Part shown: in pieces, positions 16,187 to 25,687 of the stretch
Position numbering within the stretch: position 1 is the first letter of the stretch
How the letters are laid out: each line of letters starts with the position of its first letter
From: a virus
Virus genome (UHGV): UHGV-1522278
Strand: one strand, 5' to 3'
Length of the DNA: 54,320 nt
Position numbers and translations under genes: made by a program
Notes under the pieces: generated by a model
The model's database searches: none
Seen by the model: only the letters and a program-made list of their open reading frames with translations
Told to the model about the DNA's origin: nothing

Positions 16187-16670
16187 CAGGTTATTGGCCT
16201 GCGTTTACGTCGCCGTTTTCGTGATCATCAACCTTATTGTTAACCATTGCGGTCCGTGGGTAATTCCTATCACCACGGTAGCCGTAGTGTGTGTCAATAT
16301 GATGATCCGCGACTTTCTGTTATATGACGGCGGCCTGAAATGGTCGGCTACAACATGCGCCGCCGCTGGCGCAATCACGGTGCTGATAAATTATGACGCA
16401 GGGATGGTGGCAATCGCGTCATTCGTCGCGGTTGTTTCTGGTGCGCTTATATCTGGCGGCGTTTACCGGGTTTTACCTGGTGATTTCGATTCGAAACGCT
16501 GGCCTGCAAATATAGCGTCAGCCATTGGCGATGCGTTGATTTTCCCTACGTTATCGTTTATGGCATTCATGCCGGAAATATCAGCAATGCAATTCATCTC
16601 AAAAATGGCAGCGGTAACGGTGATCACTATCATCATGCGCCGCTATTTCACGTTTGAGGGCAAAAAATGA
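16158..16670 (+). CDS. integral membrane protein
   Basis: 170 aa with 4-5 predicted TM segments. Confidence 0.6.
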   Translation: MTQMKKVTIDRLLACVYVAVFVIINLIVNHCGPWVIPITTVAVVCVNMMIRDFLLYDGGLKWSATTCAAAGAITVLINYDAGMVAIASFVAVVSGALISGGVYRVLPGDFDSKRWPANIASAIGDALIFPTLSFMAFMPEISAMQFISKMAAVTVITIIMRRYFTFEGKK

Positions 16671-17449
16671 GCAAGGGTAAACACTGGTTAAATAATTGGC
16701 TTAGAAGTTGGGTTGTGTGGTCGCTGTACGACGGCAGCGGGTACGCCGTTAAAGATTGGGCGGAAGCAGGATATAAGTGCTATTGCTTCAACTATGACGG
16801 CGCAAATCACGGCGATTATGAAGGCGTTAAAATCATTCATCCGAATATTGAATACGTTAACGTGTGGATTGACAGCCATTTCCTGGTAATGTTCTCCCCT
16901 GAATTGTCTGTTTATCCAGAGCCTGACATTATCTTGGGTTTTCCTCCATGCGACGATCTCGCCGTGTCTGGCGCTCGCTGGTTCGCTGATAAACGGAAAA
17001 AAGATCCTGACTTCCAGGTGAAGGCGGCGAATAGCGCAAAACTGGTAGAAAAACTGGCGGATATGCACAACGTTCCGTGGATGGTGGAAAATCCGGTGGG
17101 AGCACTGTCAACGCTATGGCGCAAACCTGATTTTATCTTCAACCCGTGCGCTTACGGTGGCTACCTGCCTGAAGATGACAAACATCCTGCTTTCCCTGAT
17201 GTTTACCCGCCGCGAGACGCGTACACGAAGAAAACTTGTATTTGGTGCGGCAACGGATTTAAACAGCCGCTTTTTAGACCTGTAGATCTTAACTCTGGTG
17301 ATAACCCTGGGTGGGCGAAAACCGGAGGAAGGACGAAACGAACAAAGATGATCCGCTCACTAACGCCGCGTGGCTTTGCCCGTGCTGTATTCCTGGCTAA
17401 CGACCTGGCCATCAATCGTGCTACGCTCAACCGCGTTTTACCGGACTGA
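16667..17449 (+). CDS. C5-cytosine-methyltransferase-like protein (divergent, short)
   Basis: 260 aa; motif I-like LYDGSGY, PC motif GFPPCDDLAVSG (PCD rather than PCQ), ENV-like MVENPVG; no obvious target-recognition domain. Confidence 0.55.
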   Translation: MSKGKHWLNNWLRSWVVWSLYDGSGYAVKDWAEAGYKCYCFNYDGANHGDYEGVKIIHPNIEYVNVWIDSHFLVMFSPELSVYPEPDIILGFPPCDDLAVSGARWFADKRKKDPDFQVKAANSAKLVEKLADMHNVPWMVENPVGALSTLWRKPDFIFNPCAYGGYLPEDDKHPAFPDVYPPRDAYTKKTCIWCGNGFKQPLFRPVDLNSGDNPGWAKTGGRTKRTKMIRSLTPRGFARAVFLANDLAINRATLNRVLPD

Positions 17450-17608
17450 AATTTACAAAATGGCGTCATTGCGTGATGTGGATCACATAATGGCGCTTTT
17501 TACCTTGTTCTGACGTATCCATTTTGTATACTTCAAACAAGCAAAATGCTCTTTAAAAATCCGGCAGCGCTGAAATGCGTAGAAATCACCTGAAAAGGAG
17601 AGAGCATT

Positions 17609-17785
17609 ATGCCTTTTGATAATTACCAATGGCATGACGACTATGAACGAGAAAGCGTCATGCGTGCAATGTGCAATGTATGCAGCACGAAGAAAGGAGA
17701 CTGCAACGAGTGCAACGAATGTTTAGATCATTGGCTAAAGGCCGGACACGCCGAAAGGCTGAACGAAACAGAGAATCAAAAATAA
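17609..17785 (+). CDS. small Cys-rich protein (58 aa)
   Basis: AGGAGA RBS; Cys cluster CNVCSTKKGDCNECNEC. Confidence 0.4.
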   Translation: MPFDNYQWHDDYERESVMRAMCNVCSTKKGDCNECNECLDHWLKAGHAERLNETENQK

Positions 17786-17799
17786 TCGGGGTGGTTTTT

Positions 17800-18405
17800 A
17801 TGCAAAACCCTAAAAAACCCATAAGACGCCGTTGCAAATGCTGCGGCGTTTTTTTTGAGCCTAAATATCACAATCAAACATGGTGCAGCGATGAATGTCT
17901 GGAAGAACTGAAATTTGATCAGCTATGTCGCGATCGTGAGAAGGCTATGAAGGCTATGGAACGGAAGAAACGCCGTGATAGCCAGCGTGAGGAACGCAAC
18001 CGGAAGCGGAAGCAGTTAAATCCGCGCAGCTACTGGATTAAACAGGCGCAAAACGTTTTTAACGCTTATATACGCGAGCGTGACGCGCTATTGCCGTGCA
18101 TATCATGCGGGACTTACTACGGTGAGCAATGCGGGTGGGATGCAGGCCATTACAGGACGGTAGCCGCCGCCGGACACCTTCGCTTTAACGATGATAATTG
18201 TCACAAGCAATGCAGGCACTGCAACCAGACACTAGACGGCAACATCGGAGGGTATCGCCCTGCGCTGATTCGAAAAATTGGCCTCGCCAGGGTAGTAGCT
18301 CTGGAGAACAACAACGAAACTCACAAATGGACGATAGAAGAATGCAAGGAAATCATAAAAGTCTATCAGGCTAAATTAGACGCCTTAAGGAGAAAGGCAG
18401 CATGA
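17800..18405 (+). CDS. ninG: NinG/Rap-like recombination protein
   Basis: start at the ATG at 17800; Cys-rich NinG-like sequence (CKCCGVFFEP...WCSDEC, CISCG, CHKQCRHCN). Confidence 0.8.
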   Translation: MQNPKKPIRRRCKCCGVFFEPKYHNQTWCSDECLEELKFDQLCRDREKAMKAMERKKRRDSQREERNRKRKQLNPRSYWIKQAQNVFNAYIRERDALLPCISCGTYYGEQCGWDAGHYRTVAAAGHLRFNDDNCHKQCRHCNQTLDGNIGGYRPALIRKIGLARVVALENNNETHKWTIEECKEIIKVYQAKLDALRRKAA

Positions 18406-18815
18406 ACGAATATACATTTAGCCTACCTTACCCGCCATCGAATAACCGCTATTACCGACATTCGCGCGGTTTTCACTATATAAGCAAAGTTGGGAAGGAA
18501 TATCGGGAACAAGTAAGAGACATCATCGAGCTATTAAATTTAAACATTAACCTACCTTGCCGACTGGCAATCGCCATCTATGCCGCGCCGCCGGATAACC
18601 GGATCAGAGATCTGGATAATATCCCTAAATGCCTTTTTGATAGCCTTACCTATGCCGGATTTTGGAAGGATGACGGGCAAATTGACTCAATAAAAATTGT
18701 CCGCTGCCGGAAGGTAAAAGGCGGACGCTTGTTTATTAAGATCCGCGAACGCGGCGACCTGCTACCGGATATTGACGAATACGCGACGAATACGTGGGGG
18801 TTACAATGGAGCTAA
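18402..18815 (+). CDS. rusA: RusA-type Holliday junction resolvase
   Basis: 137 aa; RusA-like N-terminus LPYPPSNNRYYRHSRG and DLDNIPK acidic motif. Confidence 0.85.
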   Translation: MNEYTFSLPYPPSNNRYYRHSRGFHYISKVGKEYREQVRDIIELLNLNINLPCRLAIAIYAAPPDNRIRDLDNIPKCLFDSLTYAGFWKDDGQIDSIKIVRCRKVKGGRLFIKIRERGDLLPDIDEYATNTWGLQWS

Positions 18816-19042: not shown

Positions 19043-19221
19043 AAAACGAAATTAAAGATCTGCAAATAGATATTCAGCGCGATGAGCATGATTTAGAAAC
19101 GGTCCGACAAATCCAGGCTTTTCATATGCGCGAATTGCTTGCATTGAAAGAGCTTGAGAGAAAGTTAGTTCAGTCTATTTCTGATCGTAAACACCTTATT
19201 GCTCGTTACGGGGGCAAGTAA
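19039..19221 (+). CDS. hypothetical protein (predicted coiled coil)
   Basis: 60-aa ORF. Confidence 0.45.
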   Translation: MKNEIKDLQIDIQRDEHDLETVRQIQAFHMRELLALKELERKLVQSISDRKHLIARYGGK

Positions 19222-19943
19222 TGAATCTGGAATCTATTCTCAAATTCCACTTCCCAAAATCACCGCGTTTATCAGATGAAAGCCGGGGCACGTCCCCGGA
19301 TGCACTTAATACTACGGATGCACTAACAGCAGCAGGCATGGCGCAATCGCGCGTAGAGCTTGGTTATAGCGCTTTTTTAGGGAAGATGGAACTATCACAA
19401 GCCGAAAAACATAAGGCCGTAGTTTTGCTTACAGAGCGTTTAAGGACTATGGCAAAAGATTATGAATACGTTATGGAACTGGACGAGGCCAAACGCAATG
19501 ATCTTATTATTCTTGTTGCCGTTTTCGCGTTTCGGGATTATTGCCAAAGCGCCGCGACGGAAAAAACTTGCCCGGAGTGCGGCGGATATAAATTTACGTT
19601 TGACGACTACGGAGAAAAACACCTTTGCAAAAAATGCAAGGGGCATGGGACAGTTCGCAATCATTGTAAACAATGCAAGGGCCGTGGCGAAGTACCGGAT
19701 AAAGCAGCCAGTGAAGCGGCGGAAATGCCAGTGTTCAAAACGTGCCAGCATTGCGGCGGGCGCGGGTACTCGCGTTTCCCTGTAGATCTTGTACGGCAGG
19801 CGGTTAATCAGCTTGTTTTTCCGGTAAGCCGATCAACATGGTGGAAAAAGTACCGGGCTTTCTATGAAGACGCCATTGCTGAATTGTTCAAAGAAGAGGC
19901 GCTGGCAGATAACGAAATTAAAAGAGTGACGCGGGGTGAATGA
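19221..19943 (+). CDS. DnaJ-type zinc-finger protein (4 x CxxCxGxG); possible Q-like late regulator
   Basis: 240 aa; CPECGGYK, CKKCKGHG, CKQCKGRG, CQHCGGRG repeats; sits where Q would be after ninG/rusA. Confidence 0.55.
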   Translation: MNLESILKFHFPKSPRLSDESRGTSPDALNTTDALTAAGMAQSRVELGYSAFLGKMELSQAEKHKAVVLLTERLRTMAKDYEYVMELDEAKRNDLIILVAVFAFRDYCQSAATEKTCPECGGYKFTFDDYGEKHLCKKCKGHGTVRNHCKQCKGRGEVPDKAASEAAEMPVFKTCQHCGGRGYSRFPVDLVRQAVNQLVFPVSRSTWWKKYRAFYEDAIAELFKEEALADNEIKRVTRGE

Positions 19944-20146
19944 TGGATAAGCTGGAAATAAACGATCAGTTTGCTGTTATCTTGTTCGAAGATAAAACGG
20001 GCGGTGCATGGTGTAAGAAAGTCACTGGTGCGGAAGCACGATTAATATTGGGTATGGCAAGCGCGTTAAATGATGGTGAATTGCCAGCCGTACCAGTTGA
20101 GCCAGTACATATTTACGGACGGAATAAAGATAATGAAAATAATTAA
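19940..20146 (+). CDS. hypothetical protein
   Basis: 68-aa ORF. Confidence 0.4.
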   Translation: MMDKLEINDQFAVILFEDKTGGAWCKKVTGAEARLILGMASALNDGELPAVPVEPVHIYGRNKDNENN

Positions 20147-20480
20147 TATTGGGTGGCTGTATTGCGAAAACTGCGACGACGATGGTATGGTCGTAAAAAC
20201 TGAAAAAGGTTGCGGCTTCATGCTGTATCAAGGTGATAAATTCGTTTGTCCTCGCTGCGGCGGCGGTGGTGAGATAGAAATCGTTAATGATATTGCTACA
20301 GCACATAAGCCATCTCGCATTGTCCTTGATGAAAAAATAAAAATTCATCCTGATTTATTACAGCAAATTATCGATCACGTATCGGCAGCCGCAATCTATA
20401 GCGATAACAATTATCAGCGTGAAATGAACGTCAAACGTGCTATTAAGCAGTATTTCGAGGTTGACGACAATGAAGCCTAA
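20133..20480 (+). CDS. zinc-ribbon protein
   Basis: start at the ATG at 20133; CENC...CPRCGGGG. Confidence 0.5.
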   Translation: MKIINIGWLYCENCDDDGMVVKTEKGCGFMLYQGDKFVCPRCGGGGEIEIVNDIATAHKPSRIVLDEKIKIHPDLLQQIIDHVSAAAIYSDNNYQREMNVKRAIKQYFEVDDNEA

Positions 20481-20742
20481 ATTAAAGGAACATCTATTTG
20501 CAAAACTGGTTAACGAATTAACGGAAACGGCACACCATTACGCTGGAACACAACAGCTACGCGGACGGTTGTCTTCAGTTGTCAACCGTTACATTGATGC
20601 AGGATGTCACCGCAAAGGTGAAATGACTATGGACAAGGCCATCAAGCGCCGTTCGGCTGAATGGTCAGTGAGTAACACCGGATTAACCGGATACATTGAA
20701 GGCTATAACGACTGTTTACAGGATCATAGCAATGAAAAGTAA
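20470..20742 (+). CDS. hypothetical protein
   Basis: start at the ATG at 20470 (GAGGT RBS). Confidence 0.45.
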   Translation: MKPKLKEHLFAKLVNELTETAHHYAGTQQLRGRLSSVVNRYIDAGCHRKGEMTMDKAIKRRSAEWSVSNTGLTGYIEGYNDCLQDHSNEK

Positions 20743-20950
20743 CCGCAAGCGCCTTGTAAGGGCATATGACAAAGCATTAAAGGCTTTTGATGATCTGCGA
20801 AGCAATAAGCGCCAGCGCCGCAAATGGGCGCGCATGCTTGTTCATGAATGGCATTATCCTGATGCTGCCTTGATAGAAGGTGCACCGCCATTTACACAGG
20901 AACAAGCCGACGAAGTAGCTAACGATAACGTTTATTATATGATGTGGTGA
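20732..20950 (+). CDS. hypothetical protein
   Basis: start at the ATG at 20732; basic N-terminus. Confidence 0.45.
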   Translation: MKSNRKRLVRAYDKALKAFDDLRSNKRQRRKWARMLVHEWHYPDAALIEGAPPFTQEQADEVANDNVYYMMW

Positions 20951-20954
20951 TAAT

Positions 20955-21320
20955 ATGCAAATAATCATTGATTATCTTTGTCATGCTGCAAATACGCTTT
21001 TTGGTTTTTATCAACAACCATTCCTCAAAGAATGGGACGAAATGCTGAATGACATCATTGATAAAGGGTTAATAATGGAGGTTGACGATCTCACAATCAA
21101 ATTTAATTACGATGGTAAAGAATATCTAATTTGGGTTGGTAATAGATGGTATTCATACGGTCATATTTATTCAATTGGTGGTAAGTTCATTAAAAGAAAC
21201 CAGGAATTTAGGCCACGCTTCCGCACAATGCGCCGCCTGCATGACCTGCATATGAAGATATTTGAAGATCAGGAAGAGCGCGAACTATTCAAGATCTACG
21301 GGGATAAATCATGGAATTAA
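20955..21320 (+). CDS. hypothetical protein
   Basis: 121-aa ORF. Confidence 0.5.
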   Translation: MQIIIDYLCHAANTLFGFYQQPFLKEWDEMLNDIIDKGLIMEVDDLTIKFNYDGKEYLIWVGNRWYSYGHIYSIGGKFIKRNQEFRPRFRTMRRLHDLHMKIFEDQEERELFKIYGDKSWN

Positions 21321-21541
21321 AAATCTGGCAGGCTATCGACGTAGTTGATAATGCGTTATCTATGTTCGCCACCGATGGGAAACGCGTAGCAATCACTACA
21401 TGGACGCGCAACTATGATGATATTTCTTTTCGTCGCAGAACGGCGGAGTGGTTTTTCTCTGAAGGCGGCTACACGATGAACATCGCACAGCTTGCCAGAA
21501 TGAAAGATGAAAAGCTGGTGGACAGCTACACAACTGCGTAA
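21311..21541 (+). CDS. hypothetical protein
   Basis: 76-aa ORF. Confidence 0.45.
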   Translation: MELKIWQAIDVVDNALSMFATDGKRVAITTWTRNYDDISFRRRTAEWFFSEGGYTMNIAQLARMKDEKLVDSYTTA

Positions 21542-21551
21542 CGGGGTAAAT

Positions 21552-21785
21552 ATGCGTATCTATGAACACAAGCGGGATAAAACCCGCTTTTTTGTTCGTG
21601 CTGGCGTGGCGTACCAGTATCACGAATGCGGTTACATTGAGGCGCTTGCTTACGATCTGGACTTCGAGCAAGAAAAGGAATGGTTCGATTTTAAAATTTA
21701 CCGTAAGCGCAAACCAACTCGCGACGAGCGCCACGCTATCCGTGAATTTTTAATCAGCATTGAACGTTGGGAGACAGAAGAGTGA
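21552..21785 (+). CDS. hypothetical protein
   Basis: start at the ATG at 21552. Confidence 0.45.
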   Translation: MRIYEHKRDKTRFFVRAGVAYQYHECGYIEALAYDLDFEQEKEWFDFKIYRKRKPTRDERHAIREFLISIERWETEE

Positions 21786-22009
21786 AAGTTAAATTCTTGC
21801 ACGATCACGGTTATCCGTCACTGAAACAGGTTGTTGGTAAGGTTGTTAACGTCGTCCATAGCGATGATGTCACTTGCATGATTAACGGTGCTGATTTAAT
21901 CGCCGCTGGCGCTGATGATCATTACATCAATCCTGCCTGGTCGTATACGTTCAGCCTGGGTGACTTCGTTGGCGACAAGGGGCGCGGGCTGGAAGTAGTC
22001 GAGGGTTAA
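21782..22009 (+). CDS. hypothetical protein
   Basis: GTG start at 21782 overlapping the upstream stop. Confidence 0.4.
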   Translation: MKVKFLHDHGYPSLKQVVGKVVNVVHSDDVTCMINGADLIAAGADDHYINPAWSYTFSLGDFVGDKGRGLEVVEG

Positions 22010-22013
22010 CATC

Positions 22014-22262
22014 ATGGACGTTTACGAAGATCTATACCTCCAGACAAACACCCGCACTTTTTATTTTCTGAAAAACGGCGTCGTATATCGCAGCGACGAC
22101 GGGGTAATAATGAAGGAGTGGTTATTTAAGCGTAAAGACCTACTCGACGATCTGGTTTTTGCCGGGATATTTCGTAAACGTCCGGCTAACCTGGAAGAAG
22201 AAATGTTGATTGAGGTATATCAAAATGAAAATCAGGGTAAGTTATTTCCGGGCGAAAGATAA
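22014..22262 (+). CDS. hypothetical protein
   Basis: 82-aa ORF. Confidence 0.45.
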   Translation: MDVYEDLYLQTNTRTFYFLKNGVVYRSDDGVIMKEWLFKRKDLLDDLVFAGIFRKRPANLEEEMLIEVYQNENQGKLFPGER

Positions 22263-22476
22263 GGCAACAGGAAAGCAGATGGCGATCCTGGTAAACGAGG
22301 CCAATTACATGTTTGTGCTTCAACCGTGGTGTATAGCTGACTATAACGATAATTATCGCCGCCACAGCGCGCGTGGTGCTGTAGGGATGAAAGGCTGGCA
22401 GCCGCGCGACATGGAAAGCTATTGTGAATGGAAGCTGATAGCAAAATACACGGTCGATTATAAAGGTGTGTTCTGA
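22225..22476 (+). CDS. hypothetical protein
   Basis: start at the ATG at 22225 (GAGGT RBS). Confidence 0.45.
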   Translation: MKIRVSYFRAKDKATGKQMAILVNEANYMFVLQPWCIADYNDNYRRHSARGAVGMKGWQPRDMESYCEWKLIAKYTVDYKGVF

Positions 22477-22531
22477 TGGTATTGCTTTCACGCAATAAAT
22501 ATAAAACGTGATCTACCTCGCAAAATATACG

Positions 22532-22563
22532 AAATGGCATTGTTTCGGCAGTGCCATTTTGTT
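22532..22563 (+). terminator. candidate rho-independent terminator
   Basis: AAATGGCA...TGCCATTT stem with a long loop, followed by TTTTGTT. Confidence 0.35.
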
Positions 22564-22586
22564 ATATATAAGCCACCGAAAGACGG

Positions 22587-22898
22587 ATGGGCAAAATCAT
22601 GAAAAGCAATAAATTCATAGCGTGCTGTTTTGTTGAAGTACCTGAAGGTGATGTCTTCTGCAATTACGAATTTAAAGACAGTTGGGGAAAATCTCATGTT
22701 GTAGTTGGCAAGCGCGGGGACTGGTTATACATAACAGACGATGACATGATTTTTACTGTAAGCCAGTTATTCAAAATTAAGTCAGAAAATAGTGAAGCAC
22801 CACTTTGCAGAATGTTTAACATGCATTATCACTCACTATTATTGTTAAAACAAGATGTTGTAAACAAAGCGCGTAGCTTACCTGGTGCCGAATTTTAA
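22587..22898 (+). CDS. hypothetical protein (AT-rich insert)
   Basis: 103-aa ORF in a visibly AT-richer stretch after a terminator-like hairpin. Confidence 0.5.
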   Translation: MGKIMKSNKFIACCFVEVPEGDVFCNYEFKDSWGKSHVVVGKRGDWLYITDDDMIFTVSQLFKIKSENSEAPLCRMFNMHYHSLLLLKQDVVNKARSLPGAEF

Positions 22899-22921
22899 TT
22901 TCTTACGAAGGAGAATGACAA

Positions 22922-23122
22922 ATGTCTAAATTTATCAGCGTTAAAGTTTTTCGTGGCACTTTTCCAGAAGATGAAAAAAATGGACAATTCGCCGGACAAC
23001 CTGGCGCATGTTTCCGTGTAGCAACTGACAACGAAGATTGCGTAAAATGCTACCACGTATCTGAACCTCCTTTTGACGTGAAATATCTTGATAATGCAGA
23101 TCACGTTAAATTTTTATCTTAG
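22922..23122 (+). CDS. hypothetical protein (AT-rich insert)
   Basis: 66-aa ORF with AAGGAG RBS. Confidence 0.5.
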   Translation: MSKFISVKVFRGTFPEDEKNGQFAGQPGACFRVATDNEDCVKCYHVSEPPFDVKYLDNADHVKFLS

Positions 23123-23221
23123 TATCATTGGAACTTAATCCATTCCCTGGTGATGAAGTGGAATTGATTGGCGCTGAACTGGTCGCTGAATACAAAATGA
23201 CTGAAGGTGTAACAGGGGGAA

Positions 23222-23476
23222 TTGACATTGAGCGCATCAAGTAAGCTATACAAGATCAGGTGTAAAGGCGAATATCCTGGCTTTACGACTGGTTGCGAAT
23301 ACCTGGGCCATATTGGGTACGGCCCTTTCGGCGAATTAGGGATGAATACGCTGGACGACGATGGCGACAACAGGACGCTTGATCTTGATTCTGATGATTT
23401 CGAATACATCCCGCCAGTAACTTACCGCGTGGTTGATGAGTTCCTGGCTGAACATGAAGACGATGAGGATGATTAA
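23222..23476 (+). CDS. small highly acidic protein
   Basis: 84 aa, non-ATG start inferred; Asp/Glu-rich C-terminal half ending EDDEDD. Confidence 0.4.
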   Translation: MTLSASSKLYKIRCKGEYPGFTTGCEYLGHIGYGPFGELGMNTLDDDGDNRTLDLDSDDFEYIPPVTYRVVDEFLAEHEDDEDD

Positions 23477-23608
23477 ATGGAAGATTGGTATAAAAATTTG
23501 CTAATTATGTTTCTTTCTGAAAATTGGGCGCTATTTGAGCGTTTTTGCGAGGAACATGGAGAAGACCCTAACGATATTTATCACGATCTTGGGGGTGAAG
23601 ATGATTGA
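23477..23608 (+). CDS. small ORF (43 aa)
   Basis: ATG directly after the upstream stop. Confidence 0.3.
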   Translation: MEDWYKNLLIMFLSENWALFERFCEEHGEDPNDIYHDLGGEDD

Positions 23609-23801
23609 ATGCCTTATTATTGCGGTTATTATCATTTACCTGGCTGGCGTCATTTTAATGGGCGCTTTTCAGAAAGCTGTTGATAGTGACGGCATTATTT
23701 GGTTCGAGCTAGTCTTCTGGCCTTTCATTACGATATACGCATTCAGTGACGCTATGCGTATTAACATCATGCGAGCCATTAAGGAGCGCAAAAATGATTG
23801 A
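23601..23801 (+). CDS. small membrane protein
   Basis: start at the ATG at 23601 (GGGGGTGAAG RBS); two hydrophobic segments. Confidence 0.5.
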   Translation: MIECLIIAVIIIYLAGVILMGAFQKAVDSDGIIWFELVFWPFITIYAFSDAMRINIMRAIKERKND

Positions 23802-23976
23802 AGATGGCGTGTACGCGGCAACAGTAGTTGAAAGGCTGTTTTACCGCGTAGAAGGCGATGATATTCGTATCCGCGTTGGCGGTGGCGAGTGGGTAGCGCC
23901 AATCATTAAGACGACGCGAGAAACAATTAAAATATTTCTTGATGCTGGCGAACTGGTGAAGGTTGGCGACCTATGA
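23794..23976 (+). CDS. hypothetical protein
   Basis: start at the ATG at 23794 (AGGAG RBS). Confidence 0.45.
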   Translation: MIEDGVYAATVVERLFYRVEGDDIRIRVGGGEWVAPIIKTTRETIKIFLDAGELVKVGDL

Positions 23977-24149
23977 ATGAGATCGAAGATGGCATCTATT
24001 TGCATAAGGTATTCAACATCGCTTATTTGGTTAGAGGTGAAGCGGTGATGATAAGACCTGATGACGTTCCGTATTGGGAATTAAGCGACATGGATCGGTG
24101 GCACATGCAAATGCTACTTGATAATGGACTGATATACAGAAAGCGGTAA
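23973..24149 (+). CDS. small ORF (58 aa)
   Basis: ATGA overlap with the upstream gene. Confidence 0.35.
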   Translation: MNEIEDGIYLHKVFNIAYLVRGEAVMIRPDDVPYWELSDMDRWHMQMLLDNGLIYRKR

Positions 24150-24157
24150 AGCCGTAT

Positions 24158-24186
24158 TTGTGGGTCGAAAACAAACAGATTAAAAT
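24158..24186 (+). promoter_or_regulatory. candidate late promoter (TTGTGG - 17 nt - TAAAAT) upstream of the lysis cassette
   Basis: -35-like at 24158-24163, -10-like at 24181-24186; followed within about 30 nt by a strong terminator hairpin. Confidence 0.35.
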
Positions 24187-24213
24187 ATTACCTAACAATG
24201 CGAAAGTGTAACT

Positions 24214-24240
24214 ACCCGGCCCCGTGCCGGGTTTTTGCTT
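24214..24240 (+). terminator. rho-independent terminator just upstream of the holin gene (tR'-like)
   Basis: ACCCGGC-cccgt-GCCGGGT followed by TTTTTGCTTT. Confidence 0.55.
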
Positions 24241-24256
24241 TGTTGGAGGTAAATCT

Positions 24257-24457
24257 ATGTTCGACAGAATACGGGAGGCGTGTGCGTATGTGACCGGGGC
24301 CGTAACTGCTTTTTTCGGCGCGATAACCATCAATGACATTGCCGTCTTTGTGGGTATCTTATCAACCATTGGCACATTTGCCGTTAATTATTACTTCAAA
24401 TCACAGGAGAACAAGCGAGCGCAAGAGGAACACGACGCGCGAATGGGGAATAAGTAA
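24257..24457 (+). CDS. holin (class II / pinholin-like)
   Basis: 66 aa from the ATG at 24257 (GGAGG RBS); two TM segments and a charged C-terminus; precedes a SAR endolysin. Confidence 0.75.
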
Positions 24458-24458
24458 C

Positions 24459-24950
24459 ATGATTAGCCAATCGCTGAAAAACAAGATTGTTGCGGCGGCG
24501 GCTGGTGGGGCGATCGCTATTGCGGCGGTGATGATTAAGCCATTAGAGGGAGTTGATTACAATCCTTATCGTGATGTTGTTGGTGTATGGACTGTTTGCC
24601 ACGGTCATACGGGAAAAGACATCATGCTTGGCAAGACTTACACGCAATCAGAATGCGATGCTTTGTTAAATAAAGATCTACACAAGACCGCAAAAGCGAT
24701 CGATCCATATATTAAAGTCGAAATATCAGATTTTACCCGCGCAGCACTTTATTCATTCGCCTATAACGTAGGCGCTACCAATTTCAAAACATCAACCTTA
24801 TTGAAGCTACTCAATGACGGCAAGAAATCAGAAGCGTGCGCACAGCTTAAACGCTGGGTATACGCTGGCGGTAAGAAGTGGCAAGGCCTGGTTAACCGCC
24901 GCGAGGTTGAATATGCCGTTTGCGAATGGGGTGAAACATGGACAAGGTGA
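24459..24950 (+). CDS. SAR endolysin (T4-type lysozyme fold, phage 21 R-like)
   Basis: 163 aa; N-terminal signal-anchor-release segment [17 protein letters not shown]; catalytic E-x8-D-x5-T. Confidence 0.9.
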
Positions 24951-25408
24951 AGACGTTAATCATCGCCGTTGTTGTTTGTATTGTTGTTGGCCTTGTTGCC
25001 GCGCTCAGTCATTGCCAGTCAGTGATAAACACAATGCAAAGCGAGCTAACTACTACGCAGGGCGCACTAAAAACAGCAAGTAACACTATTCAGCAGATGA
25101 AGGAGCGAAACGCCGAACTGTCAAAACTTGATAAGAGGTATCACGATGAGATTAAAGCTATCAGATCTGACATTGCCGATCTGCGCACTGGCATTGATAA
25201 CGGTACTATCCGGTTGCGCGTCAACGCAATACCCGTGCGAGTGTCCGACTCCACCGGAACCGCCAGCCGCATTGATGGAGCCACCTGTAGACTCACTCCC
25301 GACGCTGAATCAGCTTATCTATCCCTCAGAGAACAACTAAAAACGAAAGACGCTCAGATCACTGGGTTACAGGACTACATCAAAACGCAGTGCTTACGCA
25401 AAGAATAA
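24938..25408 (+). CDS. Rz-like i-spanin
   Basis: 156 aa; N-terminal TM segment then coiled-coil periplasmic region; overlaps endolysin end. Confidence 0.8.
25146..25340 (+). CDS. Rz1-like o-spanin lipoprotein (embedded in the +1 frame of Rz)
   Basis: start at the ATG at 25146 (AAGAGG RBS); lipobox LSGC; Pro-rich mature part. Confidence 0.7.
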   Translation: MRLKLSDLTLPICALALITVLSGCASTQYPCECPTPPEPPAALMEPPVDSLPTLNQLIYPSENN

Positions 25409-25687
25409 CAGCGCGTGGACGTGTCGCCGTTTCCGCCAGCCAGCCATAACCGGGCCAATCCTTCCCGCGAGCGACGGCGGAAAAGTCAAAAACACGTAAT
25501 ACCTGGTCAACAGCCTCATTAACAGGTCCGGCGCTACCTGGGTAGAAGAAAGCGCCATTCTCCAGTTTTATAAAATTCTGAAAACGGTACTCATGCAGCG
25601 CCGTTTTTAGTGTTTTATAGCTGTTTTCACTCCCTGCGGTGTCCGGTTTTGCGGGGGTTATATTTTTCAGGATAGAGGAATATTCTG

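Follow-up and report, generated by a model that had tools for sequence, protein, structure and literature searches.

A probable Q-lambda-family late antiterminator with four zinc knuckles and a distant candidate target in an mEpimmI-type coliphage genome

The closest described systems to the one considered here are the late antiterminators of phages lambda and phi80 and the Q genes of the mEpimmI coliphages. The structural account of lambda Q equates the Pfam family PF03589 with the Q-lambda family, which is distinct from the Q21 (PF06530) and Q82 (PF06323) families (Yin et al. 2022, PMC9388147). According to the same work, the N-terminal segment of lambda Q refolds with NusA into a torus, or nozzle, at the RNA-exit channel; the arm of the protein reads positions 11-13 of the Q-binding element (QBE) and contacts sigma region 4 and the beta' zinc-binding domain; a patch made of S110-A111-A112 touches this zinc-binding domain; and a Q-dependent regulatory cassette is defined by a late unit that adjoins the Q gene (PMC9388147). 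The mEpimmI group has been described separately, with mention of its Q-lambda-like proteins (PMC11893012). Here we analyze the virus genome UHGV-1522278, a stretch of 54,320 nucleotides that we refer to as the window, and within it a gene at 19221-19943 on the plus strand. An earlier note had described its 240-residue product as a DnaJ-type zinc-finger protein at the position expected for a Q-like late regulator. From homology, a modeled fold and comparison with lambda and phi80, we conclude that the gene very probably encodes a late-gene antiterminator of the Q-lambda family, in a long form with two zinc ribbons, which belongs to a temperate mEpimmI (mEp021-like) coliphage and acts at 24158-24236.

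Membership in the Q-lambda family

Sequence searches place the protein in the Q-lambda family. Against Pfam, it matches PF03589, 'Antitermination protein Q', with 104.1 bits (cutoff 26.7; E = 4.5e-30), and neither the Q21 nor the Q82 family is among its Pfam matches at E <= 0.01. The PHROGs family phrog_127, 'anti-termination protein Q-like', is matched at 1.5e-78 over residues 1-238 of 240. The best PDB sequence matches are all lambda Q (7UBM/7UBN, 4MO1 and 7UBJ-L), with the phmmer alignment to 7ubm_Q (E = 8e-40) covering residues 1-114 and 147-238, and BLASTP aligns residues 1-238 to lambda Q at 35% identity with a single gap of 31 residues. An AlphaFold2 model built from 75 relatives has a predicted local distance difference test (pLDDT) score of 84.7 and a predicted template modeling (pTM) score of 0.75. 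When this model is compared with known structures using Foldseek, the top eight matches are all Q-lambda structures (best 7ubn_Q, E = 1.8e-15, TM score 0.77), and the ninth has an E-value of 1.7. As in Q-lambda, the modeled fold combines a helical body, which includes a helix-turn-helix, with a zinc-ribbon arm. Together with the annotation of the mEp021 orthologue (gp37) as 'putative late gene regulator Q', these matches bear out the idea of a Q-like late regulator with which the earlier note had begun.

The correspondence with lambda Q extends to individual residues. The counterpart of the torus segment, residues 1-44, is the part best conserved relative to lambda Q; V6 of lambda is I6 here, and G39 is invariant. 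At the other end of the protein, residues 183-240 align to lambda 150-207, which comprise the helix-turn-helix and the C-terminal helix that contacts the flap-tip helix, with L202 replaced by I233 and T206 retained as an invariant T237. Several lambda residues that are needed for function are kept, namely G39, L58, E134 (E165 here), T206 and the S110-A111-A112 patch.

Four CxxCxGxG repeats had been claimed for the protein. There are indeed four CxxC knuckles, which start at residues 117 (CPECGGYK), 136 (CKKCKGHG), 149 (CKQCKGRG) and 175 (CQHCGGRG), but only the last three are exact; the first reads CxxCxGxK here and usually ends in G in relatives. When the residues of the protein are shuffled, at least four CxxC motifs arise in only 5 of 100,000 trials. 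Knuckles 3 and 4 correspond to the lambda arm ribbon, as lambda C118, C121, C144 and C147 align with C149, C152, C175 and C178, the spacing of 22 residues is retained, and E134 at the tip of the arm aligns with E165. Among the 75 relatives, C149, C152 and C178 are invariant and C175 is nearly so. The single arm ribbon of lambda Q (residues 114-152) is itself built of two CxxCxGxG knuckles, CRDCHGTG and CGRCKGVG, and the DnaJ-type motif thus belongs to the Q-lambda family, occurring once in lambda and twice here. The earlier opposition of a DnaJ-type protein to the lambda Q type is therefore mistaken, as the protein is a homologue of lambda Q over its full length; that it has more zinc knuckles than lambda Q is correct, knuckles 1 and 2 being extra.

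A chaperone-type reading of the protein draws on these repeats, which match the DnaJ cysteine-rich domain in count. Two of the four, however, are common to lambda Q, and compared with the DnaJ domain or with small DnaJ-like zinc proteins (anti-TRAP, BSD2), the remainder of the protein has the Q-lambda fold. The DnaJ_CXXCXGXG domain (PF00684) falls below its gathering threshold (28.2 versus 32.7 bits) and covers residues 136-183 only; neither a J domain nor DnaJ_C is among the Pfam matches, and the DnaJ model TIGR02349, whose cutoff is 377 bits, gives a score of 23.8. The knuckles are spaced by 15/9/22 residues, and those of E. coli DnaJ by about 13/18/10. With the Pfam, PDB phmmer, lambda Q BLASTP and Foldseek results all contrary to it, the chaperone-type reading is effectively refuted, and we give it practically no chance. 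What had been named as the finding that would count against a late regulator, a relationship to chaperone-like proteins or to an unrelated family of zinc fingers, is not what these searches returned.

The long form of the protein is widespread. A profile search yields 548 relatives, of which the best 120 are all 240-282 residues long and come from Enterobacterales (Escherichia, Klebsiella, Salmonella, Enterobacter, Citrobacter, Serratia and Xenorhabdus). Where these 120 carry names, the name is almost always 'antitermination protein', and most have a precomputed PF00684 match alongside PF03589. Among sequenced phages, 250 records encode a relative, with the long form present in phi80, HK225, mEp237, SfV, SEN22/SE1 and Stx2c phages and the short form (207 residues) in lambda, P22, HK97 and others. 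As phi80 Q has four knuckles and an annotated pR' and Q-binding site, the four-knuckle Q is a known, structurally uncharacterised subtype; a search of the available literature found no description of the four-knuckle form. Although two-ribbon proteins account for a large part of the Q-lambda family, every solved structure is that of the lambda protein, which has one ribbon.

The phage group can be recognized from the DNA. Over this region, the window shares 88-91% identity with the mEpimmI coliphages mEp010, mEp044, mEp554, mEp013, mEp515, mEp021 and MagusPhagus. The Q gene is intact and conserved in 20 of 20 related phages and is found in 35 of 5,426 complete E. coli genomes, where it is annotated 'antitermination protein'. 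The gene has thus already been annotated in the mEpimmI group, and the window protein is an unexceptional member of the Q-lambda family.

A candidate late promoter and its distance from Q

The late unit that we consider the probable target of Q consists of a promoter, a candidate pause element and a terminator, and directly precedes the holin gene (Table 1); the lysis cassette comprises the first late genes according to PHROGs and the mEp021 annotation. A promoter-terminator unit at 24158-24240 had been proposed in the earlier note, and it proves to be real. In a scan of 17-26 kb, no terminator-like site ranks above the stem-loop at 24214-24232 with its T-run, and the leader RNA has a folding energy of -20.7 kcal/mol (z = -4.1), with a predicted terminated RNA of about 43-46 nt. 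A terminator is annotated here in mEp021, mEp010, mEp013, mEp044 and mEp515. The terminators of mEp021 that are listed as demonstrated by experiment include one called t5 (PMC11893012), which may or may not be the pre-holin terminator (TERM_5).

Conservation is concentrated on the same elements. In the 20 related phages, the -10 and the preceding 12 bp are invariant or nearly so and AACAAT is invariant, with the -35 region occurring in two types. An alignment of eight phages hardly varies between the spacer and the start of the holin gene but does vary in the preceding coding sequence, and the same geometry is seen in 12 further loci. The 34-nt core of the late unit occurs once in the window, and 24181-24236 is the sole place in the window where a -10 and an AAC-type element have a strong terminator after them.

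The candidate Q site was positioned using the annotated phi80 pR' (-35, Q-binding site, -10) and lambda. In lambda, AACGAT is a sigma-dependent pause element at +1 to +6. A layout of a -10, 6-7 nt, AAC(A/G)NT and a terminator is common to the window, lambda (TAAATT - tgactc - AACGAT), phi80 (TAGATT - catctct - AACGCT), HK225 (TTAATT - ttatccc - AACGAT) and SEN22 (TAATAT - catttct - AACAGT). The sequence at 24158-24236 fits a constitutive promoter followed by a sigma-dependent pause for Q loading and an early terminator. The link between the protein and the late promoter, which had been called unclear, can thus be drawn by comparing the layout and conservation of this unit with those of Q-lambda-family late promoters.

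The homology, fold, site layout and conservation found in this analysis allow a mechanism to be proposed in which DNA binding, pausing, NusA dependence and read-through are carried over from lambda. Q would be expressed as part of the early rightward operon, as would ninG, rusA and the 17 small open reading frames (ORFs) that follow Q. By analogy with lambda (PMC9388147), it would use its helix-turn-helix and arm to bind in or beside the spacer of the 24158-24186 promoter. It would meet sigma70-RNA polymerase at a pause about 16-17 nt downstream of the start, where the enzyme would be held by the -10-like AACAAT. Q would then reposition sigma region 4 and contact the beta' zinc-binding domain and the flap-tip helix, and, with NusA, residues 1-44 would refold into a torus or nozzle that narrows the RNA-exit channel and blocks formation of the terminator hairpin. 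The polymerase modified in this way would ignore the terminator at 24214-24236 and those after Rz, and the lysis and virion genes would be transcribed; without Q, every transcript from the promoter would end after about 45 nt.

If the late promoter resembles those of lambda and of Shiga toxin (Stx) phages in being constitutive, lysogens should make this terminated RNA of about 45 nt (24194-24240) in abundance. In Stx phages, pR' leader RNAs can serve as regulatory small RNAs (PMC7547250). A search of the whole window against Rfam matched no family, and a tRNA scan found none.

The arrangement departs from that of other Q genes in the distance between Q and its presumed target. The late unit does not adjoin the Q gene in the window, as it does in a Q-dependent regulatory cassette; the Q stop and the -35 are 4,215 nt apart, and the holin ATG (24257) lies 4.3 kb after the Q stop. 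The latter agrees with the distance to the lysis cassette given in the earlier note, although the intervening ORFs of at least 43 residues number 17 and not about 20. For comparison, 80 viral contigs encoding long-Q relatives were scanned for a composite of a -10-like hexamer, 5-8 nt, an AAC-like hexamer and a terminator within 130 nt. Outside the mEpimmI group, the composite lies 20-81 nt after the Q stop at 53 of 67 long-Q loci, and most of the other 14 show it by eye or under a stricter pattern; among 389 control windows upstream of Q, none contains it. All 12 mEpimmI-type contigs have no composite within 300 nt of Q and exactly one unit 4.0-6.3 kb downstream, which always reads TAAAAT-7 nt-AACAAT with the terminator 20 nt later. 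In isolated phages, the distance from Q to the unit ranges from 1.9 kb (mEp021, mEp515) to 6.0 kb (MagusPhagus), compared with 4.2 kb in the window. A Q cassette split by a variable small-gene block is thus a real peculiarity of the mEpimmI group. Lambda Q is said to act preferentially in cis, as Echols, Court and Green in 1976 and Burt and Brammar in 1982 reportedly found, and the mEpimmI group, as a natural case of Q and its loading site lying kilobases apart, bears on this preference.

Several observations weigh against the assignment of Q and its target. Several of the lambda residues that contact the flap-tip helix are changed (C53 -> L, H56 -> M), and the candidate Q-binding spacer is unlike the lambda QBE in sequence. 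The -35 is weak (TTGTGG, 3/6) and is not conserved in the group, and the promoter was not called by a consensus promoter scan because its -35 matches at only three of six positions. The distance of 4.2 kb is unlike that at every other long-Q locus examined, with 1.9-6.3 kb found at the 20 mEpimmI-type loci. Additionally, the description of the group goes no further than to call its proteins Q-lambda-like (PMC11893012).

The distance and the weak -35 would also be in keeping with a genuine Q that acts elsewhere than 24158-24236, or that is redundant because early read-through antiterminated by the N-like protein Gp17 mainly reaches the late genes. The ORFs from Q to 24149 are continuous on the same strand, so that early transcripts run toward the lysis genes, and phages of the group possess an N-like system whose nut site lies upstream of ninG (PMC11893012). 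Furthermore, TAAGCT-7 nt-AACGAT is found at 19948-19966, right after the Q stop. We rejected this match as a Q-loading site beside Q, however, as it falls within a coding sequence, lacks a terminator and does not occur in mEp021. The window contains no composite of a -10, a pause-like element and a strong terminator other than the unit at 24158-24236, and this unit is near-invariant in the 20 phages while its flanks vary; Q itself is intact and conserved in these phages and in the 35 E. coli genomes. On balance, we consider action elsewhere, or redundancy, very unlikely, and favor a Q that acts at 24158-24236.

Beyond Rz, the region 25565-25665 (plus strand) contains two hairpins with T-runs, AAACGG-14 nt-CCGTTTT (about 25583-25610) and CCCTGC...GCGGGG (about 25627-25652). 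Both are invariant in seven phages apart from the loop of the first, which is variable, and a terminator is annotated here in mEp021 (TERM_6) and mEp013 (T11). Q-modified polymerase would need to read through these hairpins to reach the virion genes. A possible second late promoter, TAAAAT-6 nt-AACGGT at 25571-25588, was rejected; since AACGG forms the 5' arm of the conserved terminator hairpin and half of the relatives have an upstream indel, the site is better read as a terminator.

The inserted ribbon and its two alleles

Knuckles 1 and 2 lie within an insertion that accounts for the 31-residue gap in the BLASTP alignment with lambda Q. The insertion is located at the junction of the Q body and the arm, directly after the invariant S110-A111-A112 patch and just before the lambda-type arm ribbon; in lambda Q, this is the very place that contacts the beta' zinc-binding domain and forms the hinge of the arm. 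The loop that joins knuckle 1 to knuckle 2 ranges among relatives from about 15 residues, the length found here and the shortest, to about 60, and the 2-3 and 3-4 spacings are constant. The NCBIfam model for anti-TRAP (RtpA), a small protein in which one zinc is bound by two successive knuckles, matches residues 114-145 at 3.3e-5, which is below its cutoff. The variable 1-2 loop with the other spacings fixed, together with the weak anti-TRAP match, favors sequential zinc sites (1+2, 3+4) over the nested pairing of DnaJ (1+4, 2+3). It is most likely, judging from these sequence comparisons, that the inserted ribbon binds a second zinc as an independent module, with knuckle 1 paired with 2 and knuckle 3 with 4.

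The 20 mEpimmI-type Q proteins are nearly invariant except at residues ~116-151, which are present as two alleles. Allele A (protein of 240 residues, as in the window) reads CPECGGYKFTFDDYGEKHLCKKCKGHG, and allele B (242 residues) reads CPKCGGHGHLPNPYCEYTSTICARCGGKG. Between the Q genes of the window and mEp010, nucleotide identity is 33-53% over nt 361-450 and 93-97% in the flanks, and such a sharp drop bounded by conserved flanks indicates an exchanged segment as opposed to gradual drift.

It could be argued that the inserted ribbon is a DNA-specificity module, in which a longer arm reads a differently spaced element and the alleles recognise different late promoters. Lambda residues near the arm zinc site do read QBE positions 11-13 (PMC9388147), and across the family the insertion varies strongly in both length and sequence and is swapped as a cassette between close relatives. 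Within the group, however, both alleles are found with both promoter upstream types (20 phages): the window (A) and mEp010 (B) are identical from -45 to +12, and L019 (A) and MagusPhagus (B) have the other type. As the alleles do not correlate with promoter type, the insertion is unlikely to set DNA-site specificity within the group, and we find a specificity module distinctly unlikely. The position of the insertion suggests that it may modulate the arm hinge or the contact with the beta' zinc-binding domain.

Roles of the ribbon that do not involve DNA could include this beta' zinc-binding-domain contact or evasion of a Q-targeting factor made by the host or by a rival phage. The ribbon and the distant target may also be read jointly, in a proposal that we put forward as speculative and rather doubtful: the Q cassette would have been split by insertion of an early-expressed 2-6 kb array of small genes, so that Q finds its site at a distance, and the extra ribbon would be an exchangeable module that possibly fits Q to a non-DNA partner. 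Neither the two-ribbon form nor the split cassette alters the basic picture of how Q works, and we regard the split cassette and the swappable ribbon as minor but real curiosities.

The surrounding locus and its nearest relatives

The placement of the gene after ninG and rusA, from which its role had first been guessed, is borne out in order by Pfam and PHROGs, although two small ORFs lie between RusA and Q. NinG and RusA are its upstream neighbors in the early right operon. Q has its start in overlap with the stop of the small ORF before it, and the ORF after Q begins at an ATG that shares the sequence ATGA with the Q stop. Farther upstream, a gap at 17450-17610 separates a cytosine-methyltransferase-like gene (16667-17449) from ninF/ninG, and mEp021 has a predicted terminator, TERM_4, at the corresponding place. 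The nutR2 site of the N-like Gp17 system has been put at the site that corresponds to this gap (PMC11893012), which is the likely source of the read-through that expresses Q.

Table 1 Positions of the Q gene, the parts of its product, the candidate late unit and neighboring genes in the window
Feature	Position	Strand	Remarks
NinG ORF	17671-18405	+	PF05766, 2e-67; PHROGs; true start probably near 17800
RusA	18402-18815	+	PF05866, 3.9e-15; PHROGs
Q gene, 240 residues	19221-19943	+	ATG start; Q-lambda family (PF03589), long phi80-like form
Residues 1-44	19221-19352	+	Counterpart of the lambda Q N-terminal torus (nozzle) segment; presumed role
Inserted zinc ribbon, knuckles 1 and 2 (CPECGGYK ... 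CKKCKGHG), residues 117-147	19569-19661	+	Absent from lambda Q
Knuckles 3 and 4 (CKQCKGRG ... CQHCGGRG), residues 149-182	19665-19766	+	Counterpart of the lambda arm zinc ribbon
Residues 183-240, second half of Q body	19767-19940	+	Helices 188-198 and 204-237 (AlphaFold2 model)
Block of 17 tightly packed small ORFs (at least 43 residues)	19940-24149	+	Overlapping or abutting; first starts at the Q stop (ATGA)
-35, TTGTGG	24158-24163	+	Read from sequence
Spacer, 17 bp, candidate Q-binding element	24164-24180	+	Core AAACAAACAGAT; spacer AAACAAAC
-10, TAAAAT	24181-24186	+	Candidate pR'-like promoter; followed by linker ATTACCT, 7 nt
AACAAT, candidate sigma-dependent pause element	24194-24199	+	About +1 to +6 of the late transcript
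Intrinsic terminator (tR'-like), ACCCGGC-CCCGT-GCCGGGT-TTTT	24214-24236	+	14-nt gap after AACAAT; begins 20 nt on from 24194
Holin	24257-24457	+	Shine-Dalgarno sequence GGAGG at 24245-24249; PHROG 5.1e-20
Endolysin	24459-24950	+	PHROG 8.4e-65
Rz-like spanin	24938-25408	+	PHROG 4.1e-42; embedded Rz1-like lipoprotein ORF

The ORFs between Q and the late unit overlap on the same strand, so the block is presumably expressed with Q, the two probably sharing an early rightward transcript. Nearly all of its ORFs have a PHROG match, in each case to a family of unknown function. Among phages that are otherwise 90% identical, the number of small ORFs in the block varies between 8 and about 25 (1.9-6.3 kb), and the block looks like an accessory-gene hotspot. 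Within the block of mEp021, mEp021_41 is annotated as a virion structural protein, and two structural-protein genes upstream of the lysis region have been remarked on (PMC11893012). In the window, the second ORF after Q (20070-20480, plus strand; listed with 136 residues, true start probably later) encodes CENCDDDG ... CPRCGGGGE, a CxxC...CxxCGGGG pair, with a weak DnaJ_CXXCXGXG match (E = 0.006) and a match to phrog_4446, and is thus a second small zinc-knuckle protein close to Q. The last two ORFs before the promoter (23746-23976 and 23973-24149, plus strand) are tandem paralogues that match phrog_15318 at about 1e-30 each. Two terminator-like hairpins are also present on the plus strand, AAGCGGG...CCCGCTT TTTT inside an ORF of the block (21570-21589) and ATGGCA...TGCCATTTT (22534-22563) in a 110-nt gap before 22587; relatives have predicted terminators at comparable places.

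For annotation, the analysis settles the gene as a Q-lambda-family antiterminator and supplies probable coordinates of the late promoter, pause element and terminator for a group of prevalent, little-studied gut coliphages. The nearest systems are in this group, where mEp021 gp37 and the Q proteins of mEp010, 013, 044, 515, 554 and MagusPhagus are orthologues with 86-98% identity, the same gene order and the same unit before the holin. Compared with mEp010, the window has 90% DNA identity over this region; its Q has allele A, and its small-ORF block differs in content and length.

Lambda Q (207 residues; PDB 4MO1, 7UBJ-7UBN) is homologous from first to last residue and shares the N-terminal torus segment, the helical body and the arm ribbon, but has no counterpart of residues 117-147. 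The lambda pR' is located 50 nt after Q, its spacer (QBE) sequence is unrelated to that of the window, and its terminator is at +194, as opposed to about +21 to +43 in the window.

Phi80 Q (gene 17 product, 269 residues; NC_021190 41137-41946) belongs to the same family, has four knuckles with the ribbon inserted at the same point, and is 32% identical to the window protein over its full length. The phi80 record annotates a late promoter with a -35, a Q-binding site, a -10 and a terminator, in a TAGATT-7 nt-AACGCT layout as in the window. The knuckle 1-2 loop of phi80 Q has about 50 residues compared with 15 in the window, and its knuckle 3 is CxC. The DNA-binding regions of phi80 Q were reportedly studied by Guo and Roberts in 2004 (J Bacteriol 186:3599; cited in PMC9388147). 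From the Q stop to the beginning of pR', the distance is about 40 nt in phi80 and 4.2 kb in the window.

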